Positions 1,478 to 62,844 are shown, counted from the first letter of the stretch. The stretch is DNA of 64,000 nt from Lachnoclostridium sp. UBA5725 (GCA_002419585.1 DIGJ01000018.1:44566-108565), one strand, 5' to 3'. The notes: generated by a model not told the origin, from the letters alone. Numbers and translations: made by a program.

Positions 1478-1508
1478 GATATGTACGTATGCAAAAAAAT
1501 GCTGTGGC

Positions 1509-2482: not shown

Positions 2483-2494
2483 CTGGTTTTCTCC

Positions 2495-3220: not shown

Positions 3221-3337
3221 TTGTTTTCATCTGTAACAAATATGATAGTCCATCCTGGTAAAAAATGCAAGGTTAACTGTTGACGCTTGTATTTTCTCAT
3301 CGTTTGTGTCAAACTGTACAAGCTAGGAGGATATAAC

Positions 3338-4249
3338 ATGTTATACACAAAATCAAAGGAAACGTTAGCGTTCCCTGATAATTATACGGTCATTGATCTA
3401 GAAACCACCGGTCTTAATATAGAGGAAGATTCCATTATCGAGATTGCTGCATTAAAAGTAAAAAGCGGAAAAGAAGCCGAGTATTTTCAGACACTAATTT
3501 CTTGCCCCATTACGATAACACAACGGATACAAAATCTGACTGGAATATCAAATGAAATGCTGATGGACGCACCAATATTTTCGCAAATTGCAGGACAATT
3601 AAGCGCATTTATCGATGATGATATCATCATTGGTCATGCTATATTGTTTGATATTACCTTTTTATCAAAGGCTTTCTTGGCAACTGGATTTATGCCCCTT
3701 GAAAATCTTTATATTGATACCTTGCCAATCTCTCAGAAACTGCTGCCAGAATTGGTCCATCATCGTTTAAAGGATATGGCCTCTTACTACAAGTTCGATA
3801 CCACCAATGCCCATCGGGCGATGGTGGACTGCAACATGAATTATCAGGTGTTTGAGGCAATGAAGCAGACCATTATAAATACGTATACCAGTTATGATAC
3901 TTTTATTTCGAATTGGAACACGCTGTCCAAACGCATCAAGGCGGACATGATTTCAACAGACATCGAATCTTTTGACACTACACACCTTCTTTATCAGAAA
4001 AATTGTGTTATTACCGGGGCTCTTGACCGCTTTTCGCGTAAAGAAGCAATGCAGATAATCGCAAATCTTGGTGGTATCAATATGGATAAATTGAATACAT
4101 CTACTGATATTTTGATCCTCGGAAATGGAGAATACTGCGACTTATTAACTGGTATTACAAAAAAGCAAAAAAAAGCCCTCCGCCTTATCGACGAAGGGTA
4201 CCCTATTAAAATCATAACTGAGCTGGAATTTTATCAGTTGCTTTCTTAA
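3338..4249 (+). CDS. DnaQ/DEDDh-type 3'-5' exonuclease fused to a C-terminal BRCT domain
   Basis: ExoI motif VIDLETTGL and ExoIII motif HRAMVDC. The C-terminal CVITGALDRFSRKEAMQIIANLGGINMDKLNTSTDILILG is BRCT-like. The ATG at 3338 has an AGGAGG SD, so the track start at 3287 is unlikely. Confidence 0.8.
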   Translation: MLYTKSKETLAFPDNYTVIDLETTGLNIEEDSIIEIAALKVKSGKEAEYFQTLISCPITITQRIQNLTGISNEMLMDAPIFSQIAGQLSAFIDDDIIIGHAILFDITFLSKAFLATGFMPLENLYIDTLPISQKLLPELVHHRLKDMASYYKFDTTNAHRAMVDCNMNYQVFEAMKQTIINTYTSYDTFISNWNTLSKRIKADMISTDIESFDTTHLLYQKNCVITGALDRFSRKEAMQIIANLGGINMDKLNTSTDILILGNGEYCDLLTGITKKQKKALRLIDEGYPIKIITELEFYQLLS

Positions 4250-4271
4250 AAATGTTCAACGAAAGACTTTA

Positions 4272-5210
4272 TTATACAAGGTTCAGTATTTCTTCTTTGG
4301 CAGGTTCTGTTTCTTCTATCTCAATTGCATAGAGTACAGGACCTTTTCCATTGTAATCCGTCCAAAATTCGTTTTTTACTTCTGCGGTTACTTTCACCCA
4401 TTGTTTATTCTCAAGATGTCTTGCCTGCCTTGTCTTACATACAAAACCAAGGAATGCAATATCATCTGCACAACACGTCATAGCCATTCTGCCGGGCACA
4501 AAGTAATTTTTTGGGAAACCTCCTGGTTTTAACACCATACCTTTAAATTGTACTTTCTTGCCAACATAACGATCCGTATTTTCCAGTGCATCAATATACC
4601 AGATGCCAAATGCTTCCTCATCAATTTCAATAGTTGGAGCGTTTACATCGTATGGCAGATCTTCTTCGGTTATAACATCCACCATGTCTTCATCTGCATC
4701 CTCAAAGACAACCTGTGCTCTTTGATTGATTGCTTTCAGAGCCCTACGATATACTGGAAGATCTTCGATTCCCTGACAACGGTTGAAAATAATCATATCT
4801 GATTTTCGAATCATTTCTGCCAATAAGGATTTCATATTTGCAAAATAAGTAGTAAACGTAGATGCATCAAGAAAAGAGATCTGCTGCTGAATCTCCCAAT
4901 GTCCAGGAAGTTTCATATCCTTGGCATTCCACATTCCATTGTATTCAAGCAAAATACGTTCTGGCTTATATTTGTTTTCCAGTGTAATCAGTTTTTCAAC
5001 GGTAAAATCTTCCTGATCTTCTATCATTTCCAAAATGGTACGATTTTTATCTAATAGCTTAGAATCATATTCCACCAATCCATCTTCACAAACAATCAAT
5101 AGCGTAGTGCCCTCCACCAAAAAGTAATCTTCATCAATTGTTTGATTCAAAAAGGTAGTCTTCCCACTCTCCAAAAAACCATTTATTAAGTATATTGGCA
5201 TTGTTTCCAT
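4272..5210 (-). CDS. G3E/CobW-like P-loop GTPase fused to a C-terminal Cys-motif domain
   Basis: N-terminal YLINGFLESGKTTFL (Walker A). The C-terminal RMAMTCCADDIAFLGFVC resembles the CC-containing DUF1980-type domain found in metal-homeostasis loci. Confidence 0.65.
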   Translation of the reverse strand: METMPIYLINGFLESGKTTFLNQTIDEDYFLVEGTTLLIVCEDGLVEYDSKLLDKNRTILEMIEDQEDFTVEKLITLENKYKPERILLEYNGMWNAKDMKLPGHWEIQQQISFLDASTFTTYFANMKSLLAEMIRKSDMIIFNRCQGIEDLPVYRRALKAINQRAQVVFEDADEDMVDVITEEDLPYDVNAPTIEIDEEAFGIWYIDALENTDRYVGKKVQFKGMVLKPGGFPKNYFVPGRMAMTCCADDIAFLGFVCKTRQARHLENKQWVKVTAEVKNEFWTDYNGKGPVLYAIEIEETEPAKEEILNLV

Positions 5211-5247
5211 CCTGGCACCTCATTTCTAAATATTGAACTTATACTTC

Positions 5248-6342
5248 TTACTTAAATAATTGTTCCAAAGCTTCTTCCTTTAACTTTGATCCAATCACGC
5301 AAACTTTACCCGTATAATCTGGCTTACCTTTTCTAAGTTCCATTTCTCCTGGAACATAGTCAAAGTAAATCCATTCCTCGTTATCTTTGGATTTCACCAT
5401 ACCTTTGGCACGAAGTACAATACCGTAAGTCTCTTCCTCTTCCAAACGGGCTAACTTACTCTTTAATTCATCTTCTGCATAGGAAATTGGTGCTTCGAAT
5501 CCCCAGCTTCCAAATACTTCATCGGCGTGATGATGTCCATGTTCATGCCCATGATTGTGTCCACAGCCACAGCCACATTCTTCGCCGTGTTCATGATGAT
5601 GTTCATGCTCTTCTTCATGGTCATGGTGATGTCCACAGCCACATTCCTCATCATGATCATGATGGTGTCCACAGCCACATTTTTCATCCTGATCGTGATG
5701 ATGTTCATGATGGTGTTTCATTTCTTCTAGCATTTCTTTTTCTAATGTATTTGTCTTTTCAATTGCTTCAAGTACTGCGGTTCCATCTAACTGATCCCAT
5801 GGAGTAGTAATGATGGTAGCCTCTTTATTATAGTTACGAATTAATTCGACACAAGCATTGATTTTGTCTTCTGACATCTTGTCCGTACGGCTTAAAATAA
5901 TCGTCCCTGCATGTTCAATCTGATTAATAAAGAATTCTCCGAAATTTTTCACAAACATTTTACACTTTATCGCATCCACAACAGCTACTGTACTATTTAG
6001 TGTACTTCCATTTTCACGCACGTCTTCAACTGCCTTTGTGACATCCGAAAGTTTGCCTACTCCAGATGGTTCAATTAATATGCGCTCTGGCTTATATTTT
6101 TCGATTACTTCTTTTAATGACGCACCAAAATCTCCAACAAGAGAACAACAAATGCATCCAGAGTTCATTTCACGAATTTCGATACCAGCTTCTTTTAAGA
6201 ATCCGCCGTCAATTCCGATTTCTCCGAATTCATTTTCTATCAATACAACTTTTTGTCCATTTAACGCTTCTTTTAAAAGCTTTTTGACTAATGTAGTTTT
6301 TCCAGCACCTAAAAATCCAGATATAATATCAATCTTTATCAT
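5248..6342 (-). CDS. COG0523-family metallochaperone GTPase with a long internal His/Cys-rich tract
   Basis: IISGFLGAGKTTL (Walker A) and the CxCC motif GCICCSL, then HHHEHHHDQDEKCGCGHHHDHDEECGCGHHHDHEEEHEHHHEHGEECGCGCGHNHGHEHGHHH. The start was chosen at the Met of MIKIDII, which has a GGAAGG SD. Confidence 0.8.
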   Translation of the reverse strand: MIKIDIISGFLGAGKTTLVKKLLKEALNGQKVVLIENEFGEIGIDGGFLKEAGIEIREMNSGCICCSLVGDFGASLKEVIEKYKPERILIEPSGVGKLSDVTKAVEDVRENGSTLNSTVAVVDAIKCKMFVKNFGEFFINQIEHAGTIILSRTDKMSEDKINACVELIRNYNKEATIITTPWDQLDGTAVLEAIEKTNTLEKEMLEEMKHHHEHHHDQDEKCGCGHHHDHDEECGCGHHHDHEEEHEHHHEHGEECGCGCGHNHGHEHGHHHADEVFGSWGFEAPISYAEDELKSKLARLEEEETYGIVLRAKGMVKSKDNEEWIYFDYVPGEMELRKGKPDYTGKVCVIGSKLKEEALEQLFK

Positions 6343-6457
6343 AATATTCCTTCCAATCCTTTCAATCGAACTGTCCACCTAAATTTGCGGATCAGTATAA
6401 CCTAATTTATCCATTACGGTGTACATCATACCACAAGCAAATTAAGAAATCAAATCG

Positions 6458-7444
6458 TTACACGAAAACCTCGTAGGAACTTTCACTCTTATTATAAAAG
6501 CTTAGCAGTGCTTCTAAGGAACCTTCCACCATACTGGCAACTGCTGCATCGGTATAAAAAGCCATATGCTGTGTCATCGTAACATTTGGAAACTGACGAA
6601 GATATGCCATATCTTTGTTAGAAATAATGTCAGAGCGAAGGTCATGATGGTATATGCCTTCTTCTTTCTCAAAAACATCAAGTCCCAGAGCCCCAATTTT
6701 TTCTGTTTCCACCGCCTCAATGATATCCGGTATTGACATGAGCTCGCCTCTTGCACAGTTAATAATGATGACTCCCGGCTTCATCTTTGCAATCGAATTT
6801 TTATCAATCATATGATACGTACTGTCAAGCAACGGTGTGTGCAATGAAATCACATCACTTTTTTCATATAGTTCGTCCAAAGAAACATAAGTCACCATTT
6901 CTTTCAGACTTTCTTTTTTATAGGCATCGTATGCAATAATATTACACCCAAATCCTTGAAGATTTCGAACGACCGATTCTCCAATTTTTCCAGTTCCGAT
7001 AATACCAACTGTGAGATTTCTAAGTTCTCTTCCCTGCAATCCTCGCAAGGAATAATCATTTACATTTCCACGAAATAGAGCCTGTTTATAGTGTCTTAAT
7101 GACATAAGTAGCAACATGACCGAAAACTCTGCTACACCATTTGGAGCATACTGTGAATTACTGATACGAATGCCTACTTTCTTTGCATATTCTACATCGA
7201 TATGGTTAAATCCGATCGTTCTGGTTGCTAAAAACTTCACGCCAAACGCTTTCATTTTATCTAAAATTTCGGAACTAATATTACTTCGTCCCAAAATGGT
7301 GATTCCATCCTGACCGCTAATTTGGTCAATATTTTCTAAGGTCAAGGCTTCGCTACAGTAAGTAACCTCCATGTGAAAACGCTCCGCTTGTTCTAAAAAG
7401 TCTTTCTTTTCATCTTCTCTTACTTCAAATGCTATTACTTTCAT
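6458..7444 (-). CDS. D-isomer-specific 2-hydroxyacid dehydrogenase (D-lactate dehydrogenase-like)
   Basis: NAD fold GIIGTGKIGESV, plus a catalytic region with NCARG and MTQHMAFYT. The overall layout matches LdhA/LdhD. Confidence 0.8.
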   Translation of the reverse strand: MKVIAFEVREDEKKDFLEQAERFHMEVTYCSEALTLENIDQISGQDGITILGRSNISSEILDKMKAFGVKFLATRTIGFNHIDVEYAKKVGIRISNSQYAPNGVAEFSVMLLLMSLRHYKQALFRGNVNDYSLRGLQGRELRNLTVGIIGTGKIGESVVRNLQGFGCNIIAYDAYKKESLKEMVTYVSLDELYEKSDVISLHTPLLDSTYHMIDKNSIAKMKPGVIIINCARGELMSIPDIIEAVETEKIGALGLDVFEKEEGIYHHDLRSDIISNKDMAYLRQFPNVTMTQHMAFYTDAAVASMVEGSLEALLSFYNKSESSYEVFV

Positions 7445-7447
7445 TTT

Positions 7448-8452
7448 TTATACACTCATTTCTATAGAATAGGAATCAATTTGTTTCAGTTCTTCCTTCG
7501 TGAAGGATATTTTATCTATTATTTCTAAGTTCTCTATAATCTGTGTTGGCTTTGATGCACCTATCAAAACACTCGTAACCTCACCATCACGCAGTACCCA
7601 GCTTAGTGCCATCTGTGCAAGCGTTTGTCCTCGCCCTTTAGCAATCGCATTAAGCCCCTCGATTTCTTTGATTCGTTCTGGGGTTAGATTATTTTCCTTT
7701 AAAAATCGGCCATCCTTTGCAATTCGACTGTCTGATGGAATCCCATGAAGGTATTTGTCCGTTAACATTCCTTGCGCAAGCGGACTAAATGCAATAATTC
7801 CGCAGCCATGTTTTGCTGCGTATGATTTTAAACCATCTTCTTCCATACTACGGTCAAAGATCGAATATCTCCTTTGGTTTATAATAAATGGGCACCGAAG
7901 TTCTTTTAATATCTTCATGGCCGCTATGGTATGTTCCTTGTCATAATTGGAAATGCCCGCATAAAGTGCCTTCCCGCTCTTTACTGCTTGATCTAGTGCC
8001 ATCATGGATTCTTCTAACGGTGTTTCTGGGTCCATTCTGTGATGATAGAAAATGTCAACATAATCAAGATCAAGGCGTTTTAGGCTCTGATCAAGACTAG
8101 AAAGTAAATGCTTTCTACTGCCAAAGTTTCCATAAGGACCTTCCCACATGTCATATCCAGCCTTTGTACTAATGAGTAGTTCATCCCGATACGCATGCAT
8201 TTCATTTTTTAGAATACGTCCTATGTTCGTTTCTGCACTTCCTGCAATGGGACCATAATTGTTTGCGAGATCAAAGTGTGTAATACCCTGATCAAATGCC
8301 GTAGTGCATAGTTCCTTCATCGAATCATACGATGCATTGGAACCAAAATTATGCCATAATCCAAGCGACACCATGGGAAGCTTGATCCCACTATTGCCAC
8401 ATTTTTGATAACTCATCTTGACATAACGTTCTTTATTTGCTACATAGGTCAT
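7448..8452 (-). CDS. aldo/keto reductase, YghZ/Gpr-like
   Basis: MTYVANKERYVKMSYQKCGNSGIKLPMVSLGLWHNFG closely parallels the YghZ N-terminus. FDLANNYG and ISNY motifs are present. Confidence 0.8.
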   Translation of the reverse strand: MTYVANKERYVKMSYQKCGNSGIKLPMVSLGLWHNFGSNASYDSMKELCTTAFDQGITHFDLANNYGPIAGSAETNIGRILKNEMHAYRDELLISTKAGYDMWEGPYGNFGSRKHLLSSLDQSLKRLDLDYVDIFYHHRMDPETPLEESMMALDQAVKSGKALYAGISNYDKEHTIAAMKILKELRCPFIINQRRYSIFDRSMEEDGLKSYAAKHGCGIIAFSPLAQGMLTDKYLHGIPSDSRIAKDGRFLKENNLTPERIKEIEGLNAIAKGRGQTLAQMALSWVLRDGEVTSVLIGASKPTQIIENLEIIDKISFTKEELKQIDSYSIEMSV

Positions 8453-8462
8453 ATGTTTATCC

Positions 8463-9692
8463 TCATTTCTGTGCTGTTTTTGCGCACTCCATTACTTCAT
8501 GATATACCGTCTGATAGTCAAGACCTGAATCCATACATAGTTTCTTTACACTCTCATACTCCGGATACCATTTCACACCATGATTTCCTTCACACACTTT
8601 TACCTTCGCTGATCCGTAGGTTGTTTCGATGCAACGTATCTCTCTTTTCAGAGTTGTACGTTCCATTGGACATTTTCGAATGCCTATGGTTGTCGTATTT
8701 GTAAATACGATGTCTTCACATTCTTTTATTTTCTCTTCTTGACAGATCACAGAAAGCAAATAAGCAGGACGGTTTTTCTTCATATAAATCGGAGTATAGT
8801 ATACATCTTTTGCCCCGACTTCAAAAAGTTTCTCCATGGTATAAGAAAGGGCTTCACCCGAGCAATCATCGATATTGGTCTCTAGCATCCAAATAGAATC
8901 CGATGGATGTTTAAAAGACTCCTCATCCCCTGCCGTTTTTCTTTCAAAAAGCATGGCTCGAAGAATATTTGCCGTTTTAAACTCCTTCTTCCCTGCGCCA
9001 ATTCCAGTTGCCAGTATCCTTACATTCTCTGGCAAGGTTTCTTTGGTTTTTAGTGCAGCTACAATAGCCGCACCAGTTGGCGTAACCATTTCTCCTTGAT
9101 TATCCGTTATCCTTAAGGTTAGTCCATAATCACACACTATATTCAAAGTTGCTGGCACTGGTACTGGAAGAATCCCATGTTGGCAGCTAACATGCCCCTG
9201 ACCTTCATATAAGGTTGAAACAACTACATCATCTACCTCTAAATCACAAACACAAAAAGCAACGCTAACAATATCAACAATGGAATCAATGGCTCCTACT
9301 TCATGAAAGTGTACCTCTTCAATTGGTAACTGATGCGCCTTCGCCTCCGCTTTTGCTACGATTTCAAACATCCTTTTGGATAAACTTTTTACCTTTTCAT
9401 CCTCTATGGCATCCAGTATTTTATGAATATCGTATAGATTGCGATGCATGTGAGAAGAATGATCGTTCTCCTTATGATGATGCGTATGATTATCTTCTAA
9501 GATTACATCAAATGAAAAACTATCTATACCACTTTTTTTACATCGTTCCATCTTTAGTTGGTAACCGTCAAATGGCAGTTTCTTTAATAATTCCTGTAAC
9601 TTCTTTTGATCTGCGCCAAGATCTAGTAAGGCACCAACCGTCATATCTCCACTAATACCGGAGTAACATTCCAAATACAAAGTTTTATTCAT
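8463..9692 (-). CDS. larC: LarC, nickel-pincer cofactor nickel-insertion protein (DUF111)
   Basis: The N-terminus YLECYSGISGDMTVGALLDLGAD is the LarC signature. It has an internal His-rich HTHHHKENDHSSHMH and a C-terminal LarC2-like part. Confidence 0.85.
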   Translation of the reverse strand: MNKTLYLECYSGISGDMTVGALLDLGADQKKLQELLKKLPFDGYQLKMERCKKSGIDSFSFDVILEDNHTHHHKENDHSSHMHRNLYDIHKILDAIEDEKVKSLSKRMFEIVAKAEAKAHQLPIEEVHFHEVGAIDSIVDIVSVAFCVCDLEVDDVVVSTLYEGQGHVSCQHGILPVPVPATLNIVCDYGLTLRITDNQGEMVTPTGAAIVAALKTKETLPENVRILATGIGAGKKEFKTANILRAMLFERKTAGDEESFKHPSDSIWMLETNIDDCSGEALSYTMEKLFEVGAKDVYYTPIYMKKNRPAYLLSVICQEEKIKECEDIVFTNTTTIGIRKCPMERTTLKREIRCIETTYGSAKVKVCEGNHGVKWYPEYESVKKLCMDSGLDYQTVYHEVMECAKTAQK

Positions 9693-10437
9693 CTGTCTTT
9701 ACCGCCAATCGATTAATCTGTGTTGCCATATAAGCTGCTCCGTAACCATTATCAATGTTAACCACTGCAATTCCATTTGCACAGGAATTTATCATGGTTA
9801 AAAGAGCAGACACTCCTCCAAAATTGGCTCCATATCCCACCGAAGTTGGTACTGCTATTACTGGCATGTCAACCAATCCAGCTACCACACTTCCAAGTGC
9901 ACCTTCCATCCCCGCAACCGCTACAATACAATTGGCTGACTGAATTTCCTCTAACTGGGATAACAATCGATGAATCCCAGCAACACCCACGTCGTAAATA
10001 CGGGTTACCTTGGCTCCAAAAAATTCAGCTGTTTGTGCTGCTTCTTCTGCAACCGGAATATCAGCTGTTCCAGCTGTGCACACTACTATATTTCCAATTC
10101 CTTCTCTTGGATTTTTTTGAATCTTTATGATACGAGAAATAGGATCAAACATAACCGTTGGAATCTGCGGCTTCAACAATTCAAATTGTTCCTTTGTTCC
10201 TCTTGTACCCATAATATCTTCTCCCTTTTCGTAAAAGGAGCGATAGATTCCTAATAGGTGTTCATCTGCCTTTCCACCACAAAAAATTACTTCACCAACT
10301 TTTGTACGCAGTTTTCTATGATGGTCAAGTTTCGCATATCCTAAATCCTCATAAGGAAGATTTTTTAGCAACTTTTCACCCTCTAAAACGGTAAGTGTTC
10401 CATTTTTAATCTCATTTAGTATCTTCGATACGTCCAT
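9685..10437 (-). CDS. larB: LarB, pyridinium-3,5-biscarboxylic acid mononucleotide synthase (PurE-like)
   Basis: VVCTAGTADIPVAEEAAQTAEFFGAKV and AVAGMEGALGSVVAGL are AIR-carboxylase-like. It overlaps larC by 8 nt. The ATG at 10437 has an AAAGGAGG SD. Confidence 0.85.
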   Translation of the reverse strand: MDVSKILNEIKNGTLTVLEGEKLLKNLPYEDLGYAKLDHHRKLRTKVGEVIFCGGKADEHLLGIYRSFYEKGEDIMGTRGTKEQFELLKPQIPTVMFDPISRIIKIQKNPREGIGNIVVCTAGTADIPVAEEAAQTAEFFGAKVTRIYDVGVAGIHRLLSQLEEIQSANCIVAVAGMEGALGSVVAGLVDMPVIAVPTSVGYGANFGGVSALLTMINSCANGIAVVNIDNGYGAAYMATQINRLAVKTDE

Positions 10438-10457
10438 TTTTCCTCCTTTGGGCACTG

Positions 10458-12044
10458 CTACGCAATTTTCCTTAAATCAAGTTTCATATTATGGTAGTAG
10501 AGTAATAATGTTATGCCCCCTACAAATATGGTAGTCGCAGCAAAAATCCAATTTGCAGAAACGACTCGTAAAAGAAAGAATCCTGCAATCGGAATCGCTA
10601 CACTAATCATTCCCACTACGATAAATATAAAGGTTGCTGCACTTTGTTTTATAACATCAACCTCATTGTCCCATTTGAGCTTTGGCAATTTCAAGTTAAT
10701 AGACAATCCTGCGACTGCTGAAAACAAGCAATAAACCATTGGTGTCACAAACAGCCAAATCAATTCCATTCCTTTAAATGGGAGGGCAAATGCAAACATA
10801 AGTGATGTAAGTACTGCCGATGGAATGGATAAGGTTAAATTCACGAGTATTTTGCTATCAAATATCGTCTTCGGCGCAATCGGAAGGGATAATAGTATAT
10901 CCCATTGCTTTCCTTCTAAAGAAATAGAAGAGGAAGTAGTCGAATTAATACAAACCATGGAAGCAATAATTAAGGGTGATATTGACGCAATTACGTTCTC
11001 AAATCCTGGTATATTAAGCATGGTTTCAAGTCGTTTTGCTCCCATAACGAGTATTGCGATTCCCATTGCAAGCATCATAATATATCCAATCCCTGCATTT
11101 AAAACATATACAGAGGAAGAAAAGAATCGTTTCCTCTCTTTTTCATAAAGTGCTTTTAACGGTGACTTTGTACTAAGCTGCGTGAATTGATAATTGCTTT
11201 TGGTCATATGCGCTTTTAGCGCACTATTTATCTCTACATACTTCCAAGCAGTTAGTCTTACAAATAAATAGAATATACCAATAGACAAAACAGCAAAAAT
11301 CAAAAAAGAAAGTCCATTATTTTCAATCATTGCTTTGGAATAAATCGAAGTCAGCGGATACATTTTTTGCAATTGTTTGGTTAAAACAAGGGAAAGATTT
11401 GCATAATCGTTTGCTTTCAAATTACCACTTCCAAACGATAAGGCCATAATTCCTAAGGTTGCACTCATTGTAAATACAATGGATATCAGATTTTTATGTT
11501 TCATTCTTGATGCAACTGCTGTGATAATAGCGCCTATCATAGCTGCTATGGTCATTGGGATGAGCGGAATCAGAAAAACACTCAAAATTAGCATGACATA
11601 GAACCATAGCGATACCTTTACAAATGTAACATATACAAAAGCGCTGGGAATCATGGTCAACGCACTGAATGCTAAATTATTGACATACATCGTTAAAAAC
11701 CGGCTTGCAACGATAGTTTTCGGTAAAATCGGAAGTGCGCTTAACAGCTCATAATCATTCGCACCAAACAACATTCCATTTGTCTTAAAGATTGTAAACA
11801 GTAAGATAACCACACTTGTAATGGCAAGCATGTAGGACGGGATGAGTTTTGTCATACCAATCATCTGCAAGGAATATGCCACCATCCCCACATACATAGC
11901 CAACGTAGCGCCTACAACCAAAAAGCAAAATGCCATAAGGATTGCCGTACTCTTTTTCTTTTTATCATGAGAATGCAGGATATCATTGATACCAAAAATA
12001 CGAAGCAGCTGTACTTTGAGTAGTATCTTTAAGTCTTTAAGCAT
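10458..12044 (-). CDS. multi-pass ABC-2-type exporter permease
   Basis: 528 aa with at least 10 hydrophobic helices. It overlaps the upstream ATPase gene by 8 nt. Confidence 0.7.
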   Translation of the reverse strand: MLKDLKILLKVQLLRIFGINDILHSHDKKKKSTAILMAFCFLVVGATLAMYVGMVAYSLQMIGMTKLIPSYMLAITSVVILLFTIFKTNGMLFGANDYELLSALPILPKTIVASRFLTMYVNNLAFSALTMIPSAFVYVTFVKVSLWFYVMLILSVFLIPLIPMTIAAMIGAIITAVASRMKHKNLISIVFTMSATLGIMALSFGSGNLKANDYANLSLVLTKQLQKMYPLTSIYSKAMIENNGLSFLIFAVLSIGIFYLFVRLTAWKYVEINSALKAHMTKSNYQFTQLSTKSPLKALYEKERKRFFSSSVYVLNAGIGYIMMLAMGIAILVMGAKRLETMLNIPGFENVIASISPLIIASMVCINSTTSSSISLEGKQWDILLSLPIAPKTIFDSKILVNLTLSIPSAVLTSLMFAFALPFKGMELIWLFVTPMVYCLFSAVAGLSINLKLPKLKWDNEVDVIKQSAATFIFIVVGMISVAIPIAGFFLLRVVSANWIFAATTIFVGGITLLLYYHNMKLDLRKIA

Positions 12045-48637: not shown

Positions 48638-50137
48638 TTAATAGAGTGTTTCATATTTTTCTTTTAGATAAGTAACATAATAATGCGGATTAAATTTCTC
48701 ACCTGTCATCTCAAATAATATCTGATTTGTATTCTTTGACTTTCCAAACTTATGAATATTTTCCTTTAAGAATTCCTGGATTGGTTTTAGGTTTCCTTCC
48801 TCCAAATAAAGTTCAAATGGCATTACCTTTTTCATATGATAATAAATTTGTGCCCCAATTGCACTTCCGAGCGCATAGGATGGAAAATAGCCAAAATCGC
48901 CACAGGCCCAGTGCACATCCTGTAAAGCACCCTCTTTATCATTTTTGGGTTTTACGCCTAAATACTCATTGTATTTTTCGTTCCATACACGAGGAATATC
49001 CTCCACTGTAATTTTCTCCGAAAACAATAGTTTTTCAACTTCATAGCGAATCAGTACATGCAAAGAATACGTTAGTTCATCTGCTTCGGTTCGAATCAAC
49101 CCGCATTCTGGCTTATTGATTGCCTGAACGAAGTCTGTAATCGAAATTTGATTCAACTGCTCAGGAAAGGTCTCTACCAACCTTTTGTAAAGTGGTTTCC
49201 AGAAAGCTTCGCTTCTTCCAATTATATTTTCATAAAAACGAGATTGCGATTCATGAACCCCCATTGATGTTCCTTCTCCAACAAGGGTCTGCGTCAGAGC
49301 ATCATCAATCTGCATTTCATAGATTGCATGCCCACCCTCATGAATGACCGAGAAAATTGCACTTTCCAGGTTGTTTTCATAGTAATGATTTGTGATACGC
49401 ACATCTTTGTTATGAAAGTTTGTTGTAAATGGATGGGCACTCTCCTTAATTACCCCTTTATCAAAATCAAAACCAATATATCCAGCAAGGAAATTACAAA
49501 ATTCCTGCTGCTTGTCTACATCATACGATTTATAGTTAAACGATTTATCAACCGCCTTCGTTTTTTCGGTGATTGTCTTTATGAATGGTATAAGTTCCTG
49601 TTTTAATACTTCAAAAAATTCGTCAAAACTTGCTTCATTAAATCCAGGTTCAAAATCACCAAGTAAAATATCATAGGAAGATTTACCGTCCTCTTTTTTC
49701 CGATATGTGGCAAACTTCTTTTTATATGAAAGAATCTTTTGAAGCGTAGGAGCAAACGCCTGGAAGTCTGCGTTTTGTTTTGCCTTTGTCCATATATTTA
49801 ATGAAAGGGACGTTAATTCAGAATATTCACGATATTCTTTCGCCGGTATGGTTTCAAGTCTTTCGTATAATAGTTCCAATTCATGGAAAATGGCATTCTC
49901 TCTTTCATCCAAGGTTTCTTTTTGTGCTTCTATTTGTTTCATGCATACCTTTACCTGGTTATTGATATAGGCATTAAGATATAGGTCCGAAAGCACGCCT
50001 ACCATTTTTGAGGTATTCTCATCTGCATCTTGTGGCGCTTCCGTTGCCCCATCCCACTCAAATAAAGTCAAAGCGTTGGCTAATGCCTGACCTTTTTGCA
50101 AGTAATTTTCTTCTAGTTCTTTAAACAACTGATTCAT
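48638..50137 (-). CDS. M32 carboxypeptidase (Taq-type)
   Basis: HEGGHAIYE (HExxH), plus HESQSRFYEN and DVHW motifs. Confidence 0.9.
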   Translation of the reverse strand: MNQLFKELEENYLQKGQALANALTLFEWDGATEAPQDADENTSKMVGVLSDLYLNAYINNQVKVCMKQIEAQKETLDERENAIFHELELLYERLETIPAKEYREYSELTSLSLNIWTKAKQNADFQAFAPTLQKILSYKKKFATYRKKEDGKSSYDILLGDFEPGFNEASFDEFFEVLKQELIPFIKTITEKTKAVDKSFNYKSYDVDKQQEFCNFLAGYIGFDFDKGVIKESAHPFTTNFHNKDVRITNHYYENNLESAIFSVIHEGGHAIYEMQIDDALTQTLVGEGTSMGVHESQSRFYENIIGRSEAFWKPLYKRLVETFPEQLNQISITDFVQAINKPECGLIRTEADELTYSLHVLIRYEVEKLLFSEKITVEDIPRVWNEKYNEYLGVKPKNDKEGALQDVHWACGDFGYFPSYALGSAIGAQIYYHMKKVMPFELYLEEGNLKPIQEFLKENIHKFGKSKNTNQILFEMTGEKFNPHYYVTYLKEKYETLY

Positions 50138-58241: not shown

Positions 58242-58628
58242 CTATCTAAGTTCTGCGATTCGACTAACCGCAACATAAATTTCTGAAATCTTATACCAGG
58301 TTGGAAAATCTACAATTCCATTATTGGGAAGTCCAAAAACTTCCTGAAATACCTTTACCGCATTCTCTGTTCCTGGACCAAATACGCCGTCTTCCGAAAC
58401 CTTTGGAATCAATGGATATCCAGTTGATATCACATTAAGTTGAGACTGCATCTGCTTGATTTTAGGACTTGTCATTCCGTTTGATAAATTAAATCCAGGC
58501 CACGAGGATGGAACCCCTGCAACTTCATTTGTACTATTAATAAACATATCACTACCGTAATAATATTTAATTATATCGCTAGCAGAATATCCATCATCTG
58601 CCAAATATTTCGATCCCCATTGGGTCAG
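58242..58628 (-). CDS. sleC: 3' portion of the interrupted sleC-like spore cortex-lytic enzyme gene
   Basis: ...(L)TQWGSKYLADDGYSASDIIKYYYGSDMF... continues to the PG_binding_1-type C-terminus DGVFGPGTENAVKVFQEVFGLPNNGIVDFPTWYKI. The first ~53 codons of track ORF 58242-58787 are element DNA, not gene. Confidence 0.8.
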   Translation of the reverse strand: MTQWGSKYLADDGYSASDIIKYYYGSDMFINSTNEVAGVPSSWPGFNLSNGMTSPKIKQMQSQLNVISTGYPLIPKVSEDGVFGPGTENAVKVFQEVFGLPNNGIVDFPTWYKISEIYVAVSRIAELR

Positions 58629-58814
58629 CCAAATGGAAATAACATATCGATTCCGATAATTTTTGTATTTTGTTTGTATAAATTTATATTTTTTAATACA
58701 TCCTATGAACGAATATGAAAGTGTGAAGAAAAATCTTCGCTTTTCAAGTTTGTGTCTGCGCTGCGCTCGCAAACTTGCTATGCACAAAAAGCAGCGCAGG
58801 AATGGAGAAAAAAC

Positions 58815-58970
58815 ATGGATAATAAAGAACGATTCAATTTTGGAAATATTTACGAAGAGGATGATTTGGAAGAGGTAGATTTACCTCGCGATTCAAAAGG
58901 AAAAAATGCTTCTGTAGAGCCACTACCTGAATCATCAAGACCTAGAAAAGATGGGCCTGGTGGCGAATAA
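58815..58970 (+). CDS. small acidic hypothetical protein (51 aa) inside the element
   Basis: GGAG SD 7 nt before the ATG. MDNKERFNFGNIYEEDDLEEVDLPRDSKGK... has no recognisable domain. Confidence 0.3.
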   Translation: MDNKERFNFGNIYEEDDLEEVDLPRDSKGKNASVEPLPESSRPRKDGPGGE

Positions 58971-59010
58971 AAAAGAAGGGGTTATCGCACTAAATTCAGG
59001 TTTGACGGTA

Positions 59011-59090
59011 TAGGACGGACGCAAGTTTTTGTTGGGGAGTGACGCCAGGAGAGGCTGAGCAATTTAGTATTTTGACAATTTACACGGCTA
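59011..59090. repeat. palindromic MITE-like repeat, copy C (outer ~80 bp of one arm)
   Basis: ATAGGACGGACGCAAGTTTTTGTTGGGGAGTGACGCCAGGAGAGGCTGAGCAATTTAGTATTTTGACAATTTACACGGCT aligns with 19108-19190 and with the reverse complement of 22600-22688. Confidence 0.75.
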
Positions 59091-59193
59091 CCGGGCGTCT
59101 CTTTTACTCTTCTAAGTATTCTCTTTTTACTACTCCCATATAAATCTGGTATTTACTTTAACATTACAAACATAGCGGGACCGTTTATCAAAA

Positions 59194-59985
59194 TCAGCCC
59201 TTCTTAAAGCTGACATATACCAAACTTGTCATCCCATTACTTGATTTTTCTTGTTTCGTCTGTAATTCATCAAAAGAATCAATCATTTTTCCAAATTTTA
59301 CAAATCCATAATTTCTACAATCAAAGTCTGGATATCTTTTGAGAATCATATTTCCTAAATTTCCCATAAACATCCATCCATCATCATCCGATTGTTGCTC
59401 CAACAATGTTATGATCGTGCTCTTAATATTATCCATACTAGTGATTGGCTCTGCATCTTTGTTTAAAACAAATTTTTCTTCATTTGTTTTAATATCGACT
59501 TCCTCACCAGATTTTTTATACAAACGTCCTTTTGTGCTTTGCGCATCGCTTTTATACAATACATCCAGTGTCTTAAACTGTTCGCAAGCTTTTACAAAAG
59601 AAGAAGGGGTTTTACTTTCACCCATACCGATTACTCTCTTACCAGATTCCCGCAGTCGGACAGCAAGTCTTGTAAAGTCGCTATCGGAGGTCGCAATGAT
59701 AAAACCATCCACATTATTCTCATACAAAATATCCATAGCATCGATTATCATAGCAGAGTCCGATGAATTCTTACCCGTTGTATAGTTGTATTGCTGTATT
59801 GGTGATAGCGAATTATCTAACAAGCAGCTTTTCCATGTACTTTTTGACAAATCCGTCCAGTCTCCATATATTCTTCGAATGCTGGCTATTCCATATGCTT
59901 CCGTTTCTCTTACTATAATTTCGATATACTTCGGTGATATATTATCTGCGTCAATCAACAGAGCAAATTTATTTTCTTTATTCAA
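59194..59985 (-). CDS. NYN (LabA-like PIN-fold) domain protein with a C-terminal OST-HTH/LOTUS domain
   Basis: ALLIDADNISP..., GKNSSDSAMIIDAMDILY and VDGFIIATSDSDFTRLAVRLRESGKRVIGMG are NYN motifs. The C-terminal DDGWMFMGNLGNMILKRYPDFDCRNYGFVKFGKMI is LOTUS-like. Confidence 0.8.
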   Translation of the reverse strand: MNKENKFALLIDADNISPKYIEIIVRETEAYGIASIRRIYGDWTDLSKSTWKSCLLDNSLSPIQQYNYTTGKNSSDSAMIIDAMDILYENNVDGFIIATSDSDFTRLAVRLRESGKRVIGMGESKTPSSFVKACEQFKTLDVLYKSDAQSTKGRLYKKSGEEVDIKTNEEKFVLNKDAEPITSMDNIKSTIITLLEQQSDDDGWMFMGNLGNMILKRYPDFDCRNYGFVKFGKMIDSFDELQTKQEKSSNGMTSLVYVSFKKG

Positions 59986-60054
59986 AATAGAACCCTCCTA
60001 TTTTCTTCGAATCGTTACTTACATTATAATTCATCTATTGTGAACTATCAATAT

Positions 60055-60228
60055 TCAGTTTGTCGCATCCCTTTTACTCTTATTTATTACCTTTATACCT
60101 ACTTCCTTCATAAACGCAGTGGTACCATGCTGAATCAAATGTTCTTTTTGGGCATATGTAATATCCTCAAACGGAAGTTCCTCATTTTCATCGAAGAAAT
60201 GTACAAAGCATTTGAAAGTTAATTCCAA
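60055..60228 (-). CDS. 57-codon hypothetical ORF, divergent from the recombinase gene
   Basis: TTG start after GGGGGTGA. (M)ELTFKCFVHFFDENEELPFEDITYAQKEHLIQHGTTAFMKEVGIKVINKSKRDATN. It lies 69 nt upstream of the NYN gene on the same strand and is below the track size cutoff. Confidence 0.3.
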   Translation of the reverse strand: MELTFKCFVHFFDENEELPFEDITYAQKEHLIQHGTTAFMKEVGIKVINKSKRDATN

Positions 60229-60334
60229 TCAATCACCCCCATATAAGTTATGCTTTAAAGGATGTACTTGTTGTTAACAATAGGTGTATTTTTTTTGCCT
60301 TTTTCTAATAAACATAAGTAAGGAGTTGGTATGA

Positions 60335-61834
60335 TTGAGTAAAGATAAAATAGACCATGTGAAATCAGCTGCACTTTATATTCGTGTCTCTACCGATAAA
60401 CAAGAGGAACTATCCCCGGAATCGCAGAAAGATAAACTACTTGAATATGCTGCTCAAAATGGCTATTTGGTACCAACTGAATTTATCTTTTGGGAAATCG
60501 GGATATCTGGACGAAAAGCAGATAAACGTCCACAATTTCAGCGGATGATAGGGATTGCAAAAGATAAAAGTCATCCTTTTGATGCAATTCTCGTTTGGAA
60601 GTTTAGCCGATTTGCAAGAAATCAAGAAGAATCAATCGTTTATAAATCCATGCTAAAAAAAGAAAACGTGGATGTTATCAGTGTGTCCGAGTATATCTGT
60701 GATGATGTATTTGGAAAACTGATTGAGCGAATTATTGAATGGATGGATGAATACTACTCCATACGCCTATCTGGCGATGTTTTCCGTGGAATGCATAAAA
60801 AAGCAGAATTGGGTGGATATCAGGCAAGCCCACCACTTGGATATAAAATTGCAATAAAAGGCGAACCCCCTGTGATTGATACACAAAATGCAGAAATTGT
60901 AAAATCGATTTTTCGTATGTATGTGGAAGAACGCTTGTCCCTCCATGCCATTTGCGCACACCTAAATGAAATGGGATATACCACTAGATCCGGCGCTTGT
61001 TTTCAAAAACGAAGCGTTGAGTATATACTGAAAAATATACACTATTGCGGATATATCAGATGGAATGTAACAAACAACTCCACAAAACAGATAAAGGAGA
61101 AAGCAGAATGGGTCATAACAAACGGAAATTTTGAGCCAATTATATCCGAAGAATTGTTTAACGCTGCCAATGAACGGCTCGCGAGTGAATATCATCCCCG
61201 CAAATCAAAACCAGTGTATAATCAAAAGCATTGGCTTAGCGGTATGGTAAAATGTTCTGCCTGCGGCCGCTCTCTAACAATTGGCTCTGGCACGAATAAA
61301 TGTACTGGTAAAAAATATAATTATCTGCAATGCTATGGATACCACAAAGGCCTTTGCACCGTATCTCATCATGTAAGTATGTCAAAAATCGAACCGATTA
61401 TTTTGCAGGCCATTCAATATGCCTATGAATCTGGGGACTTTGAATTCGAAGCTGTATCGAAGTATCCAGGCGAATCCATGCATGATAAGGAACTTATAAG
61501 CTCGCAAATAAAGAGTATCGAAGAAAAGAAAAAACGAAGTAAAAAAGCGTACCTAGAGGGCATTGATACCCTAAGTGAATATAAAACATCTAAGATAGCA
61601 TTGCAAAAAGAGCATACTAAACTTTCTGTCATGTTAAAGAAAACGGAAATTCTTGAAATGAGGGAAGAGTCAAAAGACATTTTGCAAGATAGAATCAAAG
61701 ATGTTTATTCTGTTCTTAAGTCTGACCGTTTTTCAAATGATGAAAAGGCAAATGCGCTCCGAAAAATTGTTTATAAAATTGTTTATCAAAAAGCCATGAA
61801 CCGGATCGATGTCTACTTTCTTTATACTGACTGA
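60335..61834 (+). CDS. large serine recombinase
   Basis: It has the resolvase catalytic domain AALYIRVSTDKQ (nucleophile Ser), ...VWKFSRFARN, a recombinase domain, the Zn-ribbon CSACGRSL...CYGYHKGLC, and a coiled-coil tail. TTG start with an AAGGAG SD. Confidence 0.9.
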   Translation: MSKDKIDHVKSAALYIRVSTDKQEELSPESQKDKLLEYAAQNGYLVPTEFIFWEIGISGRKADKRPQFQRMIGIAKDKSHPFDAILVWKFSRFARNQEESIVYKSMLKKENVDVISVSEYICDDVFGKLIERIIEWMDEYYSIRLSGDVFRGMHKKAELGGYQASPPLGYKIAIKGEPPVIDTQNAEIVKSIFRMYVEERLSLHAICAHLNEMGYTTRSGACFQKRSVEYILKNIHYCGYIRWNVTNNSTKQIKEKAEWVITNGNFEPIISEELFNAANERLASEYHPRKSKPVYNQKHWLSGMVKCSACGRSLTIGSGTNKCTGKKYNYLQCYGYHKGLCTVSHHVSMSKIEPIILQAIQYAYESGDFEFEAVSKYPGESMHDKELISSQIKSIEEKKKRSKKAYLEGIDTLSEYKTSKIALQKEHTKLSVMLKKTEILEMREESKDILQDRIKDVYSVLKSDRFSNDEKANALRKIVYKIVYQKAMNRIDVYFLYTD

Positions 61835-61868
61835 TTGCACACAAAACCGTATTACTTTCCGTACGCTA

Positions 61869-62768
61869 TTACCATTGGGTCATCCAACCTGGGCACGTTA
61901 CCTGTTTACCATCGCAGTACTGAGTCAATATTGGCTGTACTACATTTGGTCTCGAAAGGTAATTGTTAAATATGGTATCTACCGTTCTTGAAATATTACT
62001 AAAGATATTTCGTCCTGGTACCCACTTATGATCAAATGCCGTAGAACTGGTAATCGTAAAATTGTACCCTTTATTGCGGTACCACTCCGTAAAAACACGG
62101 TTTAATGTAAACGATTGAATGGCTAAGATATTCGCATATAACGCAGCTTCTGGCCATGTAGCATAAATTTCACTGGAAGCTACATTTTTAATATAATCAC
62201 GATACCTGACATAATAATTTTTAGCTGTCTTATCGGTAGGCGGACCATCATGTACAACAACAAATTCTGGAACAACTGCTTTGCTTAATACAATTTCTCC
62301 TGTTTCTTTGACGGTTTTTATTTCATCCTCTGCAATTTTTGGTGGAAAATCGCCGAATAAACGATGTGGTGGTATGACGAATCCTTCCTCTTCAGGTGGT
62401 CTATTTTCAGGAACCGGATCTAAAGAAACTGGTTGCAATGCTGTAACATTGGGCAAAACCTGAGCTCCATTTACTGAAACAGAAATATATCCCGGTGCCT
62501 CAATTAATACCGTATATTCCGAATAAGGCTGTGTTTCAGAAGGTGCCATACTATAGTCAACAGAAGGCGCCGGCAATTCCACTTCTTTGGTCCTTCCTAT
62601 CGTATCTGTTGTCAGCTGATCTACAACTTGATTTGGCTGTCCGGTTACCGTAATAGTTACTTTAGCTCCCGGAACTGGCTTGTTATCCCGAAAAGAAGTA
62701 ACATTTACCTGAAAACCGCCAAAACTCTGCGTTTCAACCTGTGCAGGATATAGCTGTCTAAAATCCAT
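61869..62768 (-). CDS. sleC: 5' portion of the interrupted sleC-like spore cortex-lytic enzyme gene
   Basis: VVPEFVVVHDGPP...YIKNVASSEIYATWPEAALYANILAIQSFTLNRVFTEWYRNKGYNFTITSSTAFDH...QYCDGKQVTCPGWMTQW*. The stop is supplied by element DNA immediately after the shared core. Confidence 0.8.
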   Translation of the reverse strand: MDFRQLYPAQVETQSFGGFQVNVTSFRDNKPVPGAKVTITVTGQPNQVVDQLTTDTIGRTKEVELPAPSVDYSMAPSETQPYSEYTVLIEAPGYISVSVNGAQVLPNVTALQPVSLDPVPENRPPEEEGFVIPPHRLFGDFPPKIAEDEIKTVKETGEIVLSKAVVPEFVVVHDGPPTDKTAKNYYVRYRDYIKNVASSEIYATWPEAALYANILAIQSFTLNRVFTEWYRNKGYNFTITSSTAFDHKWVPGRNIFSNISRTVDTIFNNYLSRPNVVQPILTQYCDGKQVTCPGWMTQW

Positions 62769-62825
62769 AAAAAACCTCTAGTCTATCTATCATTATTAGT
62801 ATACGAGATAGATGGATTAGAGGTT
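62769..62825 (-). terminator. 19-bp hairpin plus U-run between the flagellin-like gene and sleC
   Basis: Minus strand AACCTCTAATCCATCTATC-(15 nt)-GATAGATAGACTAGAGGTT, then TTTTT, then immediately the sleC ATG. The only SD-like GAGG lies in the 3' arm. Confidence 0.6.
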
Positions 62826-62844
62826 CTTATTCTTATGAACAAAA

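Follow-up and report, generated by a model that had tools for sequence, protein, structure and literature searches.

The gene for SleC, an enzyme that lyses the spore cortex, is split in two in the genome of Lachnoclostridium sp. UBA5725 by a 3.26-kb insertion that carries a large serine recombinase (LSR). Our best explanation, which we regard as probable, is that the insertion is a degenerate, prophage-derived gene-intervening element integrated by its own LSR, and that excision of this skin-like element in the mother cell rebuilds sleC. An earlier note on this DNA had read the insertion as a skin-like element that a serine recombinase excises from a mother-cell germination gene, and this proposal is supported by SleC orthology, an empty site in a relative, selection on the split gene and a motif preceding a small ORF. 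We read sleC as a new host within an established type of element. The stretch of DNA analyzed, referred to here as the window, is 64,000 nucleotides long, and all positions are counted from its first nucleotide. The split gene and its insertion comprise the following features:

58242-58627, minus strand: sleC 3' segment, codons about 297-423, with its stop codon at 58242-58244
58600-58655, minus strand: attR, the junction of element and sleC 3' segment; repeat 58617-58632, probable crossover TG 58626-58627
58815-58970, plus strand: 51-aa acidic ORF, ...VEPLPESSRPRKDGPGGE, from a family without annotation that spans at least 294 clusters
59194-59985, minus strand: 263-aa NYN ribonuclease-like and OST-HTH/LOTUS gene (PHROG 37744, function unknown)
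60055-60228, minus strand: 57-aa ORF, candidate recombination directionality factor, divergent from the LSR
60244-60271, minus strand: promoter-like motif before the small ORF, AC-N17-CATAACTTA (AC at 60270-71, CATAACTTA at 60244-52)
60335-61834, plus strand: large serine recombinase, 499 aa (Resolvase, Recombinase and Zn_ribbon_recom domains)
61855-61905, minus strand: attL, the junction of sleC 5' segment and element; repeat 61872-61887, probable crossover TG 61881-61882
61881-62768, minus strand: sleC 5' segment, codons 1-296/297, colinear with SleC of PDB 9h68 and 30 intact homologues
62798-62824, minus strand: sigma-K-like promoter of sleC, AC-N17-CGTATACTA, 56 nt 5' of the start codon

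The interrupted gene and its product

In the integrated state, the 5' part of sleC is a 299-aa ORF on the minus strand (61869-62768) that ends in ...CPGWMTQW, followed by a stop codon supplied by the element. The same strand reads ...WLTQWGSKYLADDGY... from approximately 58631 down to the stop at 58242, and this 3' segment, which encodes the end of the SpoIID-like domain and a PG_binding_1 domain, lacks its own start codon and promoter. Direct repeats, CCATTGGGTCA(G/T)CCAA, lie at the two junctions (58617-58632 and 61872-61887); they are identical at 15 of 16 positions and spaced exactly 3,255 bp apart, and the sequences flanking them are unrelated outside the repeat itself. Joining the sequence after removal of the 3,255 bp between the repeats gives a single 423-codon ORF. 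The split ORF (61869-62768 and 58628 onward) is present as the earlier note described it, and both its repeat pair and its joined frame are reproduced here. No second sleC or second LSR occurs elsewhere in the window; a 499-aa ORF at 48638-50137 was considered as a second LSR and rejected, being an M32 carboxypeptidase.

The joined protein has the architecture of SleC, with an N-terminal pre/pro region, a SpoIID-like catalytic domain and a C-terminal PG_binding_1 domain, colinear with the characterized enzyme. It matches the solved SleC structure (PDB 9h68) with an E-value of 4.4e-172 and unbroken colinearity over the junction, and the 30 intact homologues, which are 409-448 aa long, also align colinearly across it, a comparison that the earlier note had suggested. 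The SleC-like catalytic and PG_binding_1 regions named there are both recovered, the former through weak SpoIID matches and the latter at residues 349-408. The insertion point falls in the most conserved motif of sleC, W-M-T-Q-W-G: in the alignment with the intact homologues, Q298, W299, G300 and S301 are invariant, and W295 and M296 are nearly so. Among the matches listed from 5.8 billion proteins, the best intact homologue is 79% identical. An AlphaFold model of the joined protein is of moderate quality (mean pLDDT 74). Judged by its sequence, the interrupted gene is a true orthologue of SleC.

The -10 box of the window sleC promoter is CGTA, not CATA, with a G at the consensus A. At the equivalent position of sleC, the strict sigma-K pattern is found in 10 of 25 loci (0.5% background), and a loose version lies upstream of sleC in 16 of 25 (2.4% background). 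In C. difficile, sleC is a sigma-K-dependent gene within the sigma-K regulon (PMC3789822). The gene is presumably expressed in the mother cell of the window organism as well.

Recombinase and attachment sites

The LSR contains Resolvase (PF00239, residues 12-161), Recombinase (PF07508, 184-283) and Zn_ribbon_recom (PF13408, 300-361) domains, with a YIRVS motif at residues 15-19 and the active-site serine in the Resolvase catalytic domain. It matches the PHROG 95 integrase with an E-value of 2.8e-110, and its identity to deposited phage integrases does not exceed 36%. The earlier note had rightly recognized a 499-aa recombinase and placed its end 38 bp from the junction; the distance from the 3' end of the gene to the attL repeat is 37 nt. 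Sister LSRs split another spore gene, cotJC, and the targets of the LSR clade are sleC, at two sites, and cotJC, both of them spore genes expressed in the mother cell.

In nine elements, the attP arms form inverted repeats around GGATGACC, and comparison of the nine places the dyad centre at the TG within GGATGACC/GGCTGACC, making TG the probable 2-bp crossover. The centre claimed earlier, CCCATTGGG, is off by a few bases. A metagenome scan with a degenerate pattern for attL, attR, attB and attP, in which the left flank was shifted by one base relative to attR and attP, returned 0 matches; attL was also unmatched, so the window species is absent from that collection.

The small divergent ORF and other element genes

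Besides the LSR, the element encodes the 57-aa ORF, the NYN-LOTUS gene and the 51-aa ORF. Profile HMM matches of the 57-aa ORF always lie upstream of and divergent from an LSR, in approximately 50 loci, and a leave-one-out HMM ranks the window copy first among 1,707 ORFs (E=6.6e-7). Pfam and PHROG searches with five to six members of the family gave nothing meaningful, and among 5.8 billion proteins its matches are named only 'hypothetical'. The small ORF, conserved but unannotated, accompanies the LSR as a partner, and it may act as the directionality factor. In prophages at the equivalent sleC site, it is found within the early operon.

The motif before the small ORF in the window is a perfect match to the sigma-K consensus AC-N16/17-CATAnnnTA, and its N17 spacer includes a GTACAT box (60262-67). 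Across the family, the motif KKACAD-N8-11-MATA precedes the small ORF in 41 of 50 loci against a background of 1.45%, and the strict sigma-K pattern is found in just 11 of 50. The family motif also stands before the small ORF where this forms part of the early operon in full prophages integrated at that sleC site. A conserved GKACAA box precedes CATA by only 9 nt, a non-canonical position for a -35 element; because it is too near, the sigma factor assignment is uncertain. The box may be the site of a regulator, for example a SpoIIID-like one, and the motif could be read as SpoIIID-like, sigma-E or sigma-K.

Among related loci, the NYN-LOTUS gene is shared only with L007, the nearest relative of the window, and has an omega of 0.026. 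The 51-aa ORF was considered as a captured neighbour of sleC, an idea rejected because its homologues occur in unrelated contexts without consistent linkage. Gene calls, domain searches and PHROG searches detect no structural, packaging, replication, conjugation or mobilization genes in the window element.

Recurrence in Lachnospiraceae

Among loci with related recombinases from 80 species, sleC is broken at residues 295-299 (W-M-T|Q-W) beside the LSR in 52, and the recombinases adjoining this break are 44-81% identical to the window LSR. Recurrence of the same break in 52 of 80 independent loci rules out chance. Split sleC occurs in about 50 gut species of Lachnospiraceae, among them abundant commensals, and its carriers include strains that can be cultured, from Blautia producta (DSM 2950), [Ruminococcus] torques (ATCC 27756), Anaerocolumna aminovalerica (DSM 1283) and Faecalimonas umbilicata. 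LSR identity and sleC identity are correlated with a rho of about 0.47. One relative (L006) has a syntenic empty site with an intact sleC, as the search for such sites proposed in the earlier note had sought. Motif-anchored joining restores the frame at all nine single-element loci for which both junctions are present, giving ORFs of 420-435 codons.

Related elements range from 2.6 kb to more than 12 kb and include whole prophages, three of which (L087-L089) are full prophages at the same sleC site. One of them (L052) is 2.58 kb, and two-gene skin elements of 2.6 kb have been published (bioRxiv 10.1101/2022.02.25.481979); the size of the window element, once described as close to the minimum conceivable, is not exceptional.

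A model of developmental excision and its alternatives

In the mechanism we propose, the element would be in place in vegetative cells and in the forespore, leaving sleC split and inactive. A sigma-E/sigma-K-type promoter active in the mother cell during sporulation would turn on the small divergent ORF as a directionality factor, and the LSR together with this factor would recombine attL with attR at the central TG, yielding a 3.26-kb circle and an intact 423-codon sleC. The rebuilt gene would be transcribed from its sigma-K-type promoter, and the spore would receive pro-SleC. In the germ line, sleC would remain interrupted, and the element would therefore be inherited vertically. We infer both the timing and the cell type of excision during sporulation.

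Decaying halves in relatives had been named as a finding that would argue against such a model, and the opposite is observed. None of 59 fragments (25 from the 5' side and 34 from the 3' side) carries a premature stop or a frameshift, the stop codon keeps its position, and dN/dS ranges over 0.015-0.14 among the 5' fragments and 0.013-0.31 among those from the 3' side. Together with the in-frame rejoining of every single-element locus with both junctions, these values already largely refute the view of sleC as a dead gene, that is, an insertion pseudogene in a lineage without sporulation or SleC germination; we consider it highly improbable, even though sleC is interrupted in the assembled genome and several carrier species are described as non-spore-forming. 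The signal of purifying selection could in part be older than the independent insertions. Between the window and L007, dS is 0.93 for the LSR, 0.67 for the NYN gene and 0.43-0.70 for flanking genes, and the sleC halves have an omega of about 0.04-0.05 (0.054 for the 3' segment). Given the similar dS of element and flanks and the low omega of the halves, sleC has been under selection while split.

The same comparison bears on whether the insertion is an ordinary mobile element or prophage remnant for which the sleC motif is a convenient attB, with excision that is stochastic or stress-induced rather than developmental. Selection on sleC would then be kept only through element-free cells or frequent excisants in the population, which sits poorly with an omega of about 0.05 in a split gene whose element and flanks have diverged to a similar degree. 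Whole prophages do occupy the same site, LSR phages often insert within conserved genes, and it is uncertain which sigma factor reads the small-ORF motif, all of which fit an ordinary element. Yet elements of 2.6-3.3 kb without replication, packaging or transfer genes persist across species with intact LSRs, and the window element is fixed in its species-level cluster, where the 5' fragment is truncated at 298/299 aa in 5 of 5 alleles. The small ORF, moreover, keeps its dedicated CATA-type motif even within a phage operon, and the clade targets mother-cell spore genes in both sleC and cotJC. We therefore judge an ordinary element to be unlikely. Another alternative, which overlaps with mother-cell excision, is a heterogeneity switch in which excision occurs in a fraction of mother cells and some spores are SleC-less and superdormant, a form of bet-hedging. 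Excision of the yin element from yabG is heterogeneous (PMC10747680), and in some genomes (L019 and L044) sleC can be rebuilt only by two independent excisions, a requirement that would compound any inefficiency. Plain restoration, however, accounts equally well for the strong purifying selection on sleC, and we hold such a switch to be quite improbable.

Relation to known intervening elements

Known intervening elements interrupt regulators (sigK, gerE) or spore-assembly genes (spoVFB, spoVR, spsM, yabG and cotJC). In C. difficile, skinCd (LSR CD1231 with CD1234) interrupts the mother-cell gene sigK, and its excision restores the ORF (PMC5025042). CD1234, to which we liken the small ORF of the window, is a 72-aa acidic, unannotated directionality factor with a mother-cell promoter and a short leader (PMC5025042); it is controlled by sigma-E and SpoIIID, and 14 nt separate its transcription start from its start codon (PMC3789822, PMC5025042). 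In contrast to skinCd, the host in the window is a germination effector enzyme of the sigma-K regulon rather than the sigma factor, the element measures 3.26 kb instead of 14.6 kb, the small ORF has no sequence relation to any annotated family, and excision is a prediction.

SPbeta in spsM of Bacillus subtilis (SprA/SprB) comprises whole prophages and degenerate derivatives at one sporulation-gene site, and its directionality-factor gene has its own sporulation promoter inside the phage operon (PMC4191935, PMC5499854). The full prophages at sleC, set beside the window element, parallel this pattern, although the taxon (Lachnospiraceae), the target gene and the att sites all differ. The gin element, which interrupts gerE of Bacillus cereus (GirC/GirX), is a non-phage element whose LSR and directionality factor are both expressed during sporulation (PMC5595907); it is 28.6 kb long and carries three recombinases, whereas the window has one LSR in 3.26 kb. 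In heterocystous cyanobacteria, the LSR XisF excises the fdxN element from a gene needed only in the terminally differentiated cell. That system differs in phylum, developmental programme and accessory factors (XisH/XisI), and the window LSR, a weak match to NCBIfam XisF (E=5.6e-32, score 111 versus a cutoff of 375), falls outside the XisF equivalog.

Catalogued skin-like elements span 2.6-48 kb, a range that includes the window element, and the minimal ones have two genes; their sole shared gene is a recombinase at the edge, the position it also has in the window, whereas the window family shares the small ORF as well (bioRxiv 10.1101/2022.02.25.481979). Galperin et al. 2022 describe such elements in cotJC (Laceyella) and spoIIID (Ruminiclostridium), so that cotJC is a target common to the catalogue and the LSR clade of the window; sleC is absent from their list of hosts (bioRxiv 10.1101/2022.02.25.481979). 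Neither sleC nor any cortex-lytic enzyme was found as the host of an intervening element in the literature searched, in line with the earlier claim that sleC was undescribed in this role.

Implications for germination in gut Lachnospiraceae

If the model is right, the set of genes that developmental DNA excision rebuilds would come to include, through sleC, the key enzyme of germination in Clostridia. A split sleC is likely to be annotated as a pseudogene or as two unrelated ORFs, and such misannotation would distort genome-based predictions of sporulation and transmission. In this family, LSR, attB, attP and candidate directionality factor also come together in dozens of natural combinations, and these sets, whose footprint is very small, may serve as recombinase tools.

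A broader possibility, which we offer only tentatively, is that germination in gut Lachnospiraceae is routinely gated by programmed DNA rearrangement. Here, sleC would be a hotspot with at least two independent target sites, and one LSR clade, with an unrecognized family of small directionality factors under a dedicated developmental promoter, would have colonized sleC and cotJC across dozens of species as selfish 'germination-addiction' modules. In that case, a spore line that loses the function of the recombinase or the directionality factor could not hydrolyze its cortex. The elements could also tune the heterogeneity of germination in the gut.

A sleC gene split by a serine-recombinase element

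The spore cortex-lytic enzyme gene sleC lies in the window as two minus-strand parts, separated by an element that carries its own large serine recombinase (LSR).

Features of the split gene and its element (window coordinates)
~58631 down to 58242, minus: sleC 3' part, with its stop at 58242, reading ...WLTQWGSKYLADDGY...
58617-58632 and 61872-61887: direct repeat, 16-mer CCATTGGGTCA(G/T)CCAA, copies exactly 3,255 bp apart
58815-58970, plus: acidic 51-aa ORF (...VEPLPESSRPRKDGPGGE)
59194-59985, minus: gene for an NYN + OST-HTH/LOTUS protein, matching PHROG 37744, where its function is unassigned
60055-60228, minus: 57-aa ORF, divergent from the LSR
60335-61834, plus: LSR ORF, 499 aa, with Resolvase, Recombinase and Zn_ribbon_recom domains, ending 37 nt from the repeat
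61869-62768, minus: sleC 5' ORF, 299 aa, ending ...CPGWMTQW and stop
62769-62830, minus: long hairpin (AACCTCTAATCCATCTATC...GATAGATAGACTAGAGGTT) with T-run, overlapping the sleC promoter and ribosome-binding site

The two gene parts, the repeats and their spacing reproduce an earlier note made from the sequence alone, as does the single 423-codon ORF obtained when 3,255 bp are removed in silico. The LSR described there also carries all three domains, and it ends 37 rather than 38 nt from the repeat. Similarity between the two repeat surroundings ends at the repeat edges. Domain searches of the joined protein place PG_binding_1 at residues 349-408 and a match to the C-terminal motif of the SpoIID/LytB domain at residues 296-320, in keeping with the SleC-like assignment made earlier. 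The joined protein is colinear with the solved SleC (PDB 9h68) over residues 15-422, including ...CPxxMTQWGSK..., and aligns end to end across the junction with 30 intact homologues (409-448 aa, 63-79% identity). Judged by these alignments, the host gene is a genuine sleC orthologue. Because Q298, W299, G300 and S301 are invariant among the homologues and W295 and M296 nearly so, the junction falls in the most conserved motif of the protein. The best intact homologue among the matches listed from a 5.8-billion-protein set is 79% identical.

The relative L006 (79% amino acid identity) has an intact 423-codon sleC in the same neighbourhood as the window (flagellin, sleC, ThrE, ThrE, M42 peptidase), and its locus is, on this comparison, the empty site that the earlier note suggested seeking in relatives. 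No second sleC or second LSR was found in the whole 64-kb window, and the rest examined, 39.5-58 kb, holds ordinary chromosomal genes.

In the sleC direction, the element reads attL, LSR, a 106-bp control region, the 57-aa ORF, the NYN gene, the 51-aa ORF and attR; the LSR and the sleC 5' segment are convergent. Domain and PHROG searches of its ORFs revealed no phage structural, replication or transfer genes, and its G+C content is 36.3%, versus 36.4% for the window. Strong purifying selection acts on the NYN cargo gene (omega 0.026 against L007, the nearest relative), whose product could serve in defence or addiction. The 51-aa ORF is a member of an unannotated family that comprises at least 294 Lachnospiraceae clusters; a homologue in L006 lies just 3' of the intact sleC, and others occur in unrelated chromosomal or mobile contexts.

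Across the family, the att core is (G)GATGACC, spanning the W-M-T codons, and the window repeat is longer (16 bp) because its arm mimics the next sleC codons too. The element-side arms are inverted repeats, as in locus L035 with TTAATACGCTATTGCCA and TGGCAATAGCGTATTAA either side of the core. The dyad symmetry noted earlier is thus present; its centre is TG (minus-strand 58626-58627 and 61881-61882), so the centre proposed before, CCCATTGGG, is a few bases off.

A family of elements in Lachnospiraceae

A scan with the window LSR as query, covering one genome per species, returned 80 LSR loci at 44-81% identity, nearly all in Lachnospiraceae. A sleC fragment broken at residues 295-299 adjoins the LSR in 52 of them. 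Named carriers include Blautia producta DSM 2950, Blautia celeris, [Ruminococcus] torques ATCC 27756, Anaerocolumna aminovalerica DSM 1283, Faecalimonas umbilicata DSM 103426, Roseburia amylophila, Dorea amylophila, Mediterraneibacter massiliensis and Lacrimispora saccharolytica. The LSR occurs in two layouts: convergent on the sleC-5' side, which is the window arrangement, and codirectional on the sleC-3' side (roughly 22 versus 29 loci, read from coordinates). Nine further loci with two junctions in reach have elements of 2.58 (L052), 3.04, 3.26, ~4.0, 5.67, 5.80, 8.1, 9.9 and 12.6 kb. The near-minimal size that the earlier note singled out is therefore not exceptional, nor is it new, since two-gene skin elements of 2.6 kb have been published (bioRxiv 10.1101/2022.02.25.481979).

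In the nearest relative (L004/L007, Acetivibrio sp. JTS-AC268), the window element is accompanied by 6.7 kb of extra cargo (GNAT, FIST, a histidine kinase, three response-regulator genes), which is inserted at L004 1373-7973, between the recombinase stop and the attL arm. The comparison shows that cargo is gained or lost as a module at this position. The elements of L026, L054, L019 and L018 seem to carry toxin-antitoxin-like pairs, an ATPase whose partner gene is defence-system-like, and phage lysis remnants, as read by eye from ORF order and translations.

Three loci (L087-L089) hold whole prophages, with a cI/ImmA module, Sak, RusA and a 502-aa LSR, integrated at the same sleC site; in L087 the sleC 3' fragment spans 1861-2250, the LSR 2302-3810 and the small ORF ~6070-6216. 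This suggests that the small elements are reduced descendants of temperate phages integrating in sleC. Skin and defective SPbeta copies are likewise thought to be reduced phage descendants.

Selection on the split halves

All nine single-element loci with two junctions rejoin into ORFs of 420-435 codons. Premature stops are absent from the 25 sleC 5' fragments and the 34 3' fragments of the family; the first stop falls at the same conserved position in 30 of the latter, the extracted stretch of the other four being one codon short of it. Among pairs both carrying an element, dN/dS is 0.015-0.14 for 5' and 0.013-0.31 for 3' fragments. The decaying halves that the earlier note named as contrary evidence are thus the opposite of what is seen. 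In the species-level cluster of the window's 5' fragment, all five alleles end at 298/299 aa, and LSR identity correlates with sleC identity at a Spearman rho of ~0.47. Between the window and L007, dS is 0.93 for the LSR and 0.67 for the NYN gene, versus 0.43-0.70 for flanking genes, and omega is 0.038 and 0.054 for the sleC halves, the same as for neighbouring intact genes (0.05-0.10). These results are most simply read as an element that the common ancestor already carried, with full purifying selection maintained on the interrupted sleC.

A small ORF with its own control motif

The 57-aa ORF of the window belongs to a family of 45-62 aa with the pattern phi-phi-phi-I-x-G ... L-T-x-E-E-x-x-x-I ... 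L-N-x-x-A ... G-Y, found in ~50 loci, always divergent from the LSR and upstream of it. The window copy is the most divergent member, and a leave-one-out HMM ranks it first of 1,707 ORFs (E=6.6e-7). Neither Pfam nor PHROG assigns the family, and all its named members are called hypothetical. We regard the small ORF as a candidate recombination directionality factor.

Directly upstream lies (G/T)(G/T)ACA(A/G/T)-N8-11-(C/A)ATA in 41 of 50 loci, against a background of 1.45%; from its end to the start codon are 16-49 nt, usually about 25. Its window version, AAC-AAGTACATCCTTTAAAG-CATAACTTA, is a perfect sigma-K consensus, AC-N17-CATAnnnTA, a strict form present in 11 of 50 loci (background 0.44%). 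In prophage L087, GTACAA-N9-CATAAGATGTA, a ribosome-binding site and GTG precede the small ORF within the early operon, recalling sprB of SPbeta.

The sigma-E and sigma-K promoters of C. difficile have the CATA-type -10 box in common and are told apart at -35 (ATA versus AC), and the SpoIIID box of this species is KRTAACARK (PMC3789822, PMC5025042). The skin directionality factor CD1234, a 72-aa unannotated protein, is transcribed there by sigma-E with SpoIIID from a start 14 nt ahead of its start codon (PMC3789822, PMC5025042). The GKACAA box resembles a SpoIIID-type site, but at 9 nt from CATA it does not lie where a canonical -35 would; the motif may be of either sigma-E or sigma-K type.

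Many LSR genes are themselves preceded by a hairpin and T-run and then a T-rich CATA block, probably an insulated promoter. In L034, L022, L033, L076 and others, the conserved terminator-like hairpin and T-run lie ~100 nt upstream, followed by ATAC(C/T)C-T6-7-(C/A)ATAnnnT and a ribosome-binding site. The window has a degraded version of this block, overlapped by the small-ORF promoter.

The sleC promoter

The mother-cell origin of SleC invoked in the earlier note agrees with the membership of C. difficile sleC in the sigma-K regulon (PMC3789822). Upstream of sleC, AC-N16/17-CATAnnnTA is found strictly in 10 of 25 loci (background 0.5%) and loosely in 16 (background 2.4%), mostly 53-60 nt upstream. 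The -10 box is CGTATACTA in the window, L007 and another family locus, L008, and CATATATTA in the empty-site relative. In the window it sits inside the 62769-62830 hairpin, which probably terminates the flagellin gene upstream.

Other target sites

In loci L019 and L044, a different element with an unrelated 567-aa LSR is inserted after sleC W229 (T-E-W|Y-R-N), at 467-11872 and 3174-5088, respectively. Their sleC is thus in three pieces and two excisions are needed; L056 may be a third case. In Lachnospira, Butyrivibrio and others, elements of 3.1-4 kb with LSRs 44-47% identical to that of the window, and with the same small-ORF partner, interrupt a spore-coat gene for a cotJC-like Mn-catalase after ...SQYGG. 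The split lies just downstream of the LSR in L065, L066, L067, L072, L076, L077, L079, L081, L082 and L085; in L067, for instance, the two fragments lie at 8121 (5') and ~11450 (3'). cotJC has already been noted as an intervening-element target in Bacillales (bioRxiv 10.1101/2022.02.25.481979).

Proposed mechanism and alternatives

On the observed anatomy, conservation and selection on split sleC, we set a model of mother-cell excision that we consider likely, its timing, cell type and directionality-factor activity being what the model proposes. In vegetative cells and the forespore the element would remain integrated, supplying the stop of the sleC 5' ORF and leaving the 3' part without a promoter. 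The mother cell would switch on the small ORF, whose product would let the LSR recombine attL with attR at TG. The rebuilt sleC would then be transcribed by sigma-K RNA polymerase, and the excised circle lost together with the mother cell. Known systems of the same kind are skin, SPbeta/spsM, vfbin, vrin, gin and yin.

A conventional mobile element whose excision is non-developmental strikes us as improbable: the LSR clade has repeatedly landed in spore genes, which points to a developmental lifestyle and not to an attB chosen arbitrarily. A switch generating heterogeneity or bet-hedging, which overlaps the excision model, seems less probable still. That sleC is simply a dead gene is very hard to credit given in-frame rejoining at nine of nine loci, no premature stop in 59 fragments, their low dN/dS and the low omega of both window halves.

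As the earlier note suspected, the searchable literature contains no report of sleC as a host gene of an intervening element. Apparently new, besides the host gene itself, is how widely the family extends through gut Lachnospiraceae. So, it seems, are the two independent target sites within one gene and the conserved small protein that accompanies the LSR, together with the conserved control motif in front of it.
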